Source: Escherichia coli
Lineage (GTDB): Bacteria; Pseudomonadota; Gammaproteobacteria; Enterobacterales; Enterobacteriaceae
Length of the DNA: 64,000 nucleotides
Assembly: GCF_044324875.1 (NCBI RefSeq)
Contig: NZ_CP172185.1
Reading direction: 5' to 3' (one strand)
Numbering within the stretch: the stretch's first letter is position 1; each line of letters starts with the position of its first letter. The notes under the pieces are model-generated. The model made no database searches and had not been told where the DNA came from. It was given only the letters and a program-made list of their open reading frames with translations. Shown piece by piece: positions 130 through 442 of this stretch. Made by a program: the position numbers and the translations under genes.

Positions 130-442
130 TAACAATCCAGGGTAATGGGCGAGGCGAGAGTAAGACGGTAACAGACATATCTTCTTGTGTCTTTCTTTTA
201 ATACCAAAAGATAACCGTTTCTTTACATTAATGAAAAGTGGAAAAAGTTGAAGACGATTTGTCGAAAATTCTTGTATAGGTTGTCATTTAAATGATGCAA
301 TATTTTTTATCATAAGTTGTTGTTTTATATGTATTAGCACTAAATGCAAAAAATTAATTTATCATTCTGTACACATATTTCGTACAAGTTTGCTATTGTT
401 ACCTCACTTAACATTGATTAACATTTTTAACAGAGGCGTAGC

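Follow-up and report, generated by a model that had tools for sequence, protein, structure and literature searches.

Placement of the BluR operator and its neighbouring control elements in the bluF/ycgZ spacer of an Escherichia coli genome

Where in the spacer between the divergent genes bluF and ycgZ does the repressor BluR bind, and how far can the regulatory map drawn for K-12 be carried over to the same region of another strain? A preliminary description made from the sequence alone had proposed that this spacer carries the BluR-repressed ycgZ promoter, and had pointed to a near-repeat, TGTACA...CGTACA at about 368..390, as a possible operator element. We followed up this proposal in a 64-kb stretch of E. 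coli DNA (the window, whose coordinates are used throughout). K-12 work of 2009-2019 has already established the operator, its promoter and the MarA site, as well as the pathway that links BluF, BluR, the Ymg proteins, Rcs, curli and colanic acid, and the analysis has little discovery value; what it provides is an annotation that is transferable to the source strain at base resolution.

Gene layout and composition of the spacer

The reverse complement of positions 1-129 reads MLTTLIYRSH..., so that bluF begins with its ATG at 129 (minus strand); ycgZ begins with its ATG at 443 (plus strand), which leaves a spacer of 313 bp (130-442) that is exactly intergenic. Its G+C content is 30.7%, compared with 49.1% for the window, and falls within the lowest 0.4% of 313-bp tiles. 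The initial picture of an AT-rich spacer between a minus-strand bluF and ycgZ was therefore correct. Downstream of ariR (Table 1) ymgC and then pdeG follow on the plus strand, so that the operator discussed below sits in the expected context, with a divergent bluF on one side and ycgZ-ymgA-ariR-ymgC downstream on the other. The window excludes the rest of bluF and all of bluR; K-12 and E. coli strain 2900 both have an adjacent bluR, and in the source genome of the window this gene would come before position 1.

The same 1.7 kb with the same annotations is present in about 4,900 of 5,426 complete E. coli genomes. Given that the best match over 1-1700 among these genomes is 98.7%, the window carries an uncommon bluF-ymg allele. 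Gene order and the 313-bp spacer length are the same in K-12 MG1655, to which the spacer aligns with 97% identity overall and 100% identity over 345-402. About 18 positions in the mid-spacer (about 210-345) differ from K-12, and the only difference near the operator is C403 (-4), which is T in K-12 and is polymorphic among E. coli.

Several features of the rest of the window were also recorded. The segment from bluF to ycgH (1-6455) shares 96.5% identity with K-12, lower than the figure of about 98% for the remainder, and is followed by an IS21-family element (6456-9094) that interrupts the ycgH autotransporter gene relative to K-12 and contains ORFs for an IstB-like ATPase (6555-7553, minus strand) and a transposase (7327-8973, minus strand). 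The sRNA C0299 (17954-18032, plus strand; 107.7 bits), the only Rfam match in the window at gathering score, lies between hlyE and umuD as in K-12. Between dadX and cvrA there is a 478-aa leucine-rich-repeat ORF (27442-28878, minus strand); all that K-12 has here is ymgM and a partial IS1414 remnant. At the location of ycgY, a 6.8-kb cluster absent from K-12 (34225-40651, minus strand) encodes a TonB-dependent receptor, a ModD-like protein of the quinolinate phosphoribosyltransferase fold, a methyltransferase, an ABC ATPase, a FecCD permease and a periplasmic binding protein, and looks like an iron/siderophore-type uptake system; its ATPase ORF (37894-38454) is without the N-terminal part and may be frameshifted.

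The BluR operator and the ycgZ promoter

In K-12 a dimer of the MerR-like repressor BluR binds TGTAC-N9-GTACA, bends the DNA and represses the single ycgZ promoter (PMC3509220). The site was defined by Tschowri, Lindenberg and Hengge (2012), who footprinted tag-free BluR with DNase I on the ycgZ promoter (PMC3509220), and who found that with point mutations in the operator (five sets) BluR binding was lost and ycgZ::lacZ was derepressed as much as by a bluR knockout (PMC3509220). The mutants, given in their Table S1, are C-39A/T-38G, C-39A/T-38G/G-37A, G-24A/C-21A, T-23C/A-22G/A-20G, and a five-fold mutant spanning G-24 to A-20 (PMC3509220).

Positions 368-386 of the window read TGTACACATATTTCGTACA, identical to K-12, and are the same site that was footprinted and mutationally defined. 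The wild-type oligonucleotide of Table S1 (ATCATTCTGTACACATATTTC; PMC3509220) corresponds to window 361-381, and the mutated bases fall at 367-369 (C-39/T-38/G-37) and 382-386 (GTACA, -24 to -20). The site consists of two hexamers separated by 7 bp, TGTACA at 368-373 (-38 to -33) and CGTACA at 381-386 (-25 to -20). Given that the mutated bases all lie within the two hexamers, the possible operator element of the preliminary description is the operator itself, although the motif ends at 386 and not at 390. No clean MerR-type palindrome had been recognized in that description; a clean one, TGTAC-N9-GTACA, is found at 368-386, and the operator can equally be written as a direct repeat, GTACA...GTACA, with the copies 13 bp apart.

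We put the probability at roughly 0.95 that window 130-442 is the bluF/ycgZ divergent control region and that TGTACA-N7-CGTACA is its BluR operator. The near-repeat might instead be a functionless chance feature of A+T-rich DNA, and the low G+C content of the spacer, together with 11 occurrences of TGTACA in the window, lends itself to this view. However, the exact palindrome occurs only once in the 64 kb, where dinucleotide shuffles predict 0.02 per window, and it appeared in just 8 of 20,000 shuffles of the spacer. The motif is moreover invariant in E. coli while the flanking spacer falls to 80-90% identity, and its position is kept across eight genera, as detailed in the next section. Conservation and the published mutational data already refute a chance origin, to which we assign next to no weight.

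With the operator in place, the promoter can be laid out around it. The numbering of the Table S1 mutants (PMC3509220) sets +1 at A406, and the main text, which puts the ycgZ start 36 nt upstream of the ATG, leads by counting to 406 or 407 (PMC3509220). Kettles et al. (2019) described an extended -10, a sigma38-specific -13C and a distal UP half-site for PycgZ (PMC6900184), and the 18-bp promoter spacer corresponds to window 376-393. The CTATnGT of the -10 region is conserved across genera. Both half-sites overlap the -35 and spacer of the ycgZ promoter, and from this map BluR would cover the -35 and the upstream spacer. The coordinates in Table 1 for the UP half-site are putative, being placed by the UP consensus.

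Table 1. Coordinates of genes and regulatory features in and around the bluF/ycgZ spacer
Feature	Position	Strand	Details
bluF, 5' end	1-129	-	First 43 codons; annotated bluF in K-12 and about 4,900 E. coli genomes
bluF promoter (putative hexamers)	158-193	-	Start about 159; extended -10 TGtTACCGT (173->165); -35 AAGACA (193->188)
Distal TGTACA-type box	273-278		Reads TGTATA in E. coli, without variation among 8 alleles
MarA marbox	334-353	+	Forward, centred about -62/-63; conserved block TTAGCACTAAATGCAAAAAA
Distal UP-element half-site	349-359	+	AAAAATTAATT, about -57 to -47; half-site described for PycgZ (PMC6900184)
BluR operator	368-386		Palindrome TGTAC-N9-GTACA; K-12 footprint, EMSA and derepression data (PMC3509220); identical to K-12
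PycgZ -35	370-375	+	TACACA; inferred from published 18-bp spacer and the -10 at 394-399
PycgZ extended -10 and -10	391-399	+	TG 391-392; C393 at -13; TATTGT 394-399 (-12 to -7); from the sequence itself
ycgZ transcription start and 5' leader	406-442	+	A406 +/-1 nt, from mutant numbering
ycgZ	443-679	+	
ymgA	722-994	+	
ariR	1023-1289	+	

The proposal that the spacer carries the BluR-repressed ycgZ promoter is thus supported, the core sequence being identical to that for which the K-12 data were obtained (PMC3509220). A simple sigma-70 consensus scan missed the real ycgZ promoter because its hexamer matches, 4/6 and 4/6, lie below the threshold of the scan. The scan did call TTAACA-16-CAAAAT at 427-454, which overlaps the start codon and was taken as a chance match (2 hits against 2.7 expected).

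The ycgZ leader contains a Shine-Dalgarno GAGG at 433-436 and a 10-bp tandem duplication (TTAACATT at 408-415 and 418-425, followed by a third TTAACA at 427-432) that is kept in E. coli and absent from other genera. Folding of the leader RNA was no better than that of shuffled sequences (z = +1.4), and thus gave no sign of a thermosensor, and an Rfam scan of 1-800 returned no match even at E<=1.

In K-12 sigma-S RNA polymerase is the main user of the promoter, and sigma-70 RNA polymerase uses it four-fold less well (PMC6900184). Loss of the site or of bluR results in about 100-fold derepression at 37 °C (PMC5491885), and the temperature control of ycgZ is BluR-dependent (PMC5491885). Since the operator and core promoter are identical to those of K-12, we infer that the same mechanism operates in the source strain of the window. 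BluR bound at 368-386 would block the ycgZ promoter by occupying its -35 and upstream spacer; when the light is blue and the temperature low, BluF, a BLUF-EAL protein, would bind BluR and remove it from the DNA, and the Ymg proteins would then act on RcsC, the latter two steps as given in the literature.

Conservation and further sites in the spacer

The operator is among the most conserved parts of a fast-evolving, H-NS-flagged spacer. For a 60-mer covering 355-414, 2,425 E. coli records give a match of 100% and the other 2,489 match at 95-99% identity, whereas for a 60-mer from mid-spacer (255-314) just 35 records come up to 99%, 3,581 lie at 90-95% and 1,014 at 80-90%. In eight deliberately divergent E. 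coli alleles, all of which have 313-bp spacers, 355-387 is invariant, and polymorphisms appear just outside the operator at 388 (G/T) and 403-404.

The comparison was extended to the spacers upstream of ycgZ orthologues in three Citrobacter lineages, Scandinavium, Intestinirhabdus, Enterobacter kobei, Atlantibacter and Phytobacter. All of the spacers from outside E. coli have a divergent BLUF-EAL gene, and most of their length cannot be aligned. In 8 of 10 spacers the exact TGTAC-N9-GTACA nevertheless stands at one and the same position, being kept in eight enterobacterial genera, and the proximal GTACA, along with a TTT three bases downstream, is invariant in all ten. Given that the proximal hexamer is TGTACA everywhere except in Escherichia and one Citrobacter, the CGTACA of E. 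coli is a slightly degenerate form. Alignment with the characterised K-12 promoter and operator, identical over 345-402, maps the operator to this position, and the motif is conserved both within E. coli and across genera; on both counts the preliminary description is borne out.

Two further observations were made in these comparisons. In six of the eight non-E. coli spacers there is another TGTATA about 19 bp downstream of the proximal TGTACA, within a conserved TTGTATAACTTA near the transcription start; the Citrobacter multispecies locus and Scandinavium are without it, and in E. coli this stretch reads TTACCTCACTTA. In E. coli strain 2900 (NZ_CP103633.1, a blood isolate) an IS1 is inserted in the ycgZ promoter between the BluR operator and -35 on one side and the -10 on the other (equivalent to 393/394), and this insertion should either uncouple the operon from BluR or silence it.

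Upstream of the operator lies a separate element, the marbox of MarA. Kettles et al. (2019) located a MarA site 62 bp upstream of the start of transcription by ChIP-seq and EMSA (PMC6900184), and reported that MarA activates only the sigma-70 holoenzyme at PycgZ (PMC6900184). With +1 at 406 the centre of the marbox falls at window 344, and the plus strand at 334-352 fits the marbox consensus with 3 mismatches, in agreement with the position and orientation that were published. The consensus itself is non-discriminating (131 hits against 145 expected). The window copy differs from K-12 by one base, A344 in place of T, and the TTAGCAC block is conserved in most other genera, the exceptions being the Enterobacter kobei and Atlantibacter spacers. 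We had considered the TTAGCA-N5-TGCTAA-like block as an Lrp site, and dropped this assignment because the MarA paper shows it to be a marbox (PMC6900184).

BluR may not be the sole occupant of the spacer, as the TetR-family protein RcdA (YbjK) also footprints there in vitro. The TGTACA repeats could serve also, or chiefly, as a binding or nucleation site for RcdA, with the operator common to two unrelated regulators and RcdA spreading cooperatively from the operator and from the distal box (273-278) so as to regulate bluF, ycgZ or both. The ycgF/ycgZ spacer was isolated six times in genomic SELEX with RcdA, DNase I footprinting in vitro revealed a distal site with TTGTATAGA and a promoter-proximal stretch of 36 nt that holds tandem RcdA boxes, and bluF mRNA is lower when rcdA is mutated (PMC3535384). 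The SELEX clone runs from window 272 in the direction of ycgZ and contains a single tandem TGTACA pair, the operator. Among RcdA sites elsewhere the strongest is TTGTGTACAttTGTACACAA (appY), one half-site of which is matched in 8 of 9 positions by TGTACACAT at window 368-376, and boxes with one mismatch cluster on both strands at 365-376. Given these boxes on the first half-site, and a best RcdA site that is built of TGTACA cores, the operator may be shared.

On the other hand, the overlap of the 36-nt footprint with the operator is putative, and the exact RcdA box TTGTnnACA, as a tandem or a palindrome, is absent from 130-442, where only one-mismatch versions occur (365-376, 219-227, 259-268 and 424-432). 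RcdA coats DNA cooperatively and aggregates in vitro, its discoverers caution that the distal footprint includes a vector junction, and the target they report is bluF, an effect on ycgZ not being among their results (PMC3535384). Mutants of the operator, moreover, phenocopy the bluR knockout. We therefore consider a role for RcdA at the repeats possible, though the odds are against it, and retain BluR as the regulator assigned to the operator.

The distal box itself is an exact TGTACA in 7 of the 8 other spacers and TGTAGA in Phytobacter, and in all genera examined it lies 94-98 bp upstream of the first operator half-site, at distances from the bluF start that range from 101 to 180 bp. By chance, an exact TGTACA would be expected in this stretch about 0.01 times per spacer. 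The box coincides with the TTGTATAGA end of the K-12 RcdA SELEX clone (PMC3535384), and beyond this clone end we found no published assignment for it. The published BluR probes do not cover it: the footprint probe has its start within the box, at 274, and the EMSA probe starts at 330 (PMC3509220). It is conceivable, although on balance doubtful, that the box is an auxiliary site which cooperates with the main operator through a second BluR dimer or a bridging RcdA. Were this so, control of the bluF promoter would be coupled to that of the divergent ycgZ promoter across a spacing of about nine helical turns; as it stands, the box is a lead and falls short of a finding. A second operator-like pair in the same 13-bp register, TGTCGA (260-265) with the TGTATA of the distal box, was rejected, as 260-265 is allele-specific in E. 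coli (TGGCGA, TGGTGA, TCGTTT) and unconserved in Citrobacter.

On the bluF side, primer extension in K-12 placed the transcription start 30 nt upstream of the ATG (PMC3509220). The promoter hexamers given for bluF in Table 1 are putative, read from the sequence, and their assignment is supported in that TCTGnTA and the GAC within the -35 are conserved across genera. A sigma-70 SELEX survey lists the spacer as H-NS-associated and predicts extra promoters in mid-spacer, for which we found no support. Inverted repeats (e.g. 291-313/344-366, at 74%) were discounted as A+T-rich matches, with the left arm in the most variable part of the spacer. Two small ORFs of 25 aa each, at 344-421 (plus strand) and 223-300 (minus strand), overlap promoter elements and are unannotated in K-12.

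Comparison with MerR-type and related regulators

Given that BluR belongs to the MerR family, one may ask whether it acts as a classical MerR switch, a protein that stays bound, under-winds an over-long promoter spacer and activates when induced. BluR does bend DNA, its footprint has two hypersensitive sites, and the 18-bp spacer of PycgZ is longer than optimal. The geometry, however, is not that of a switch. The spacer is 18 bp and not 19-20 bp, and the dyad, whose centre is at 377, overlaps the -35 and is offset upstream by 7-8 bp from the middle of the spacer (about 384.5); a 19-20-bp spacer with a centred dyad is thus not what the ycgZ promoter has. Deletion of bluR or mutation of the site gives full derepression, which largely refutes switching, and BluF releases BluR from the DNA. 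The authors of the K-12 study concluded that BluR is a repressor only, and that it has lost ligand-binding features (PMC3509220). Activation of the MerR type is on these grounds very improbable, and simple repression by BluR remains the preferred account.

The closest known system is the K-12 BluR (YcgE) operator, with which the window is identical over 345-402, a segment that takes in the half-sites, the -35, the 18-bp spacer and the -10. The paralogous MerR-like regulator MlrA is 49% identical to BluR and its site shares the GTACA core, and BluR binds the MlrA site weakly (PMC3509220). In the MlrA site, however, the hexamers are 12 bp apart in place of the 7 bp of the BluR operator, and the site lies upstream of its promoter and is activating, whereas the BluR operator overlaps the -35 and spacer and only represses. 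The RcdA box (TTGTnnACA / TTGTGTACAttTGTACACAA; Shimada et al. 2012, PMC3535384) has the TGTACA core in common with the BluR operator, which is itself without an exact RcdA box; RcdA is of the TetR family and coats DNA cooperatively, and its reported target here is bluF.

With the classical MerR promoters, merT/MerR, copA/CueR, zntA/ZntR and soxS/SoxR (Brown et al. 2003, as cited in PMC3509220), the ycgZ promoter has in common a winged-helix dimer on a dyad within a long-spacer promoter, and distortion of the DNA. It differs from them in that its spacer is 18 bp and not 19-20 bp, its dyad is shifted onto the -35, and it is without activation or a small-molecule ligand, derepression being brought about by a protein antagonist, BluF, that removes the repressor.
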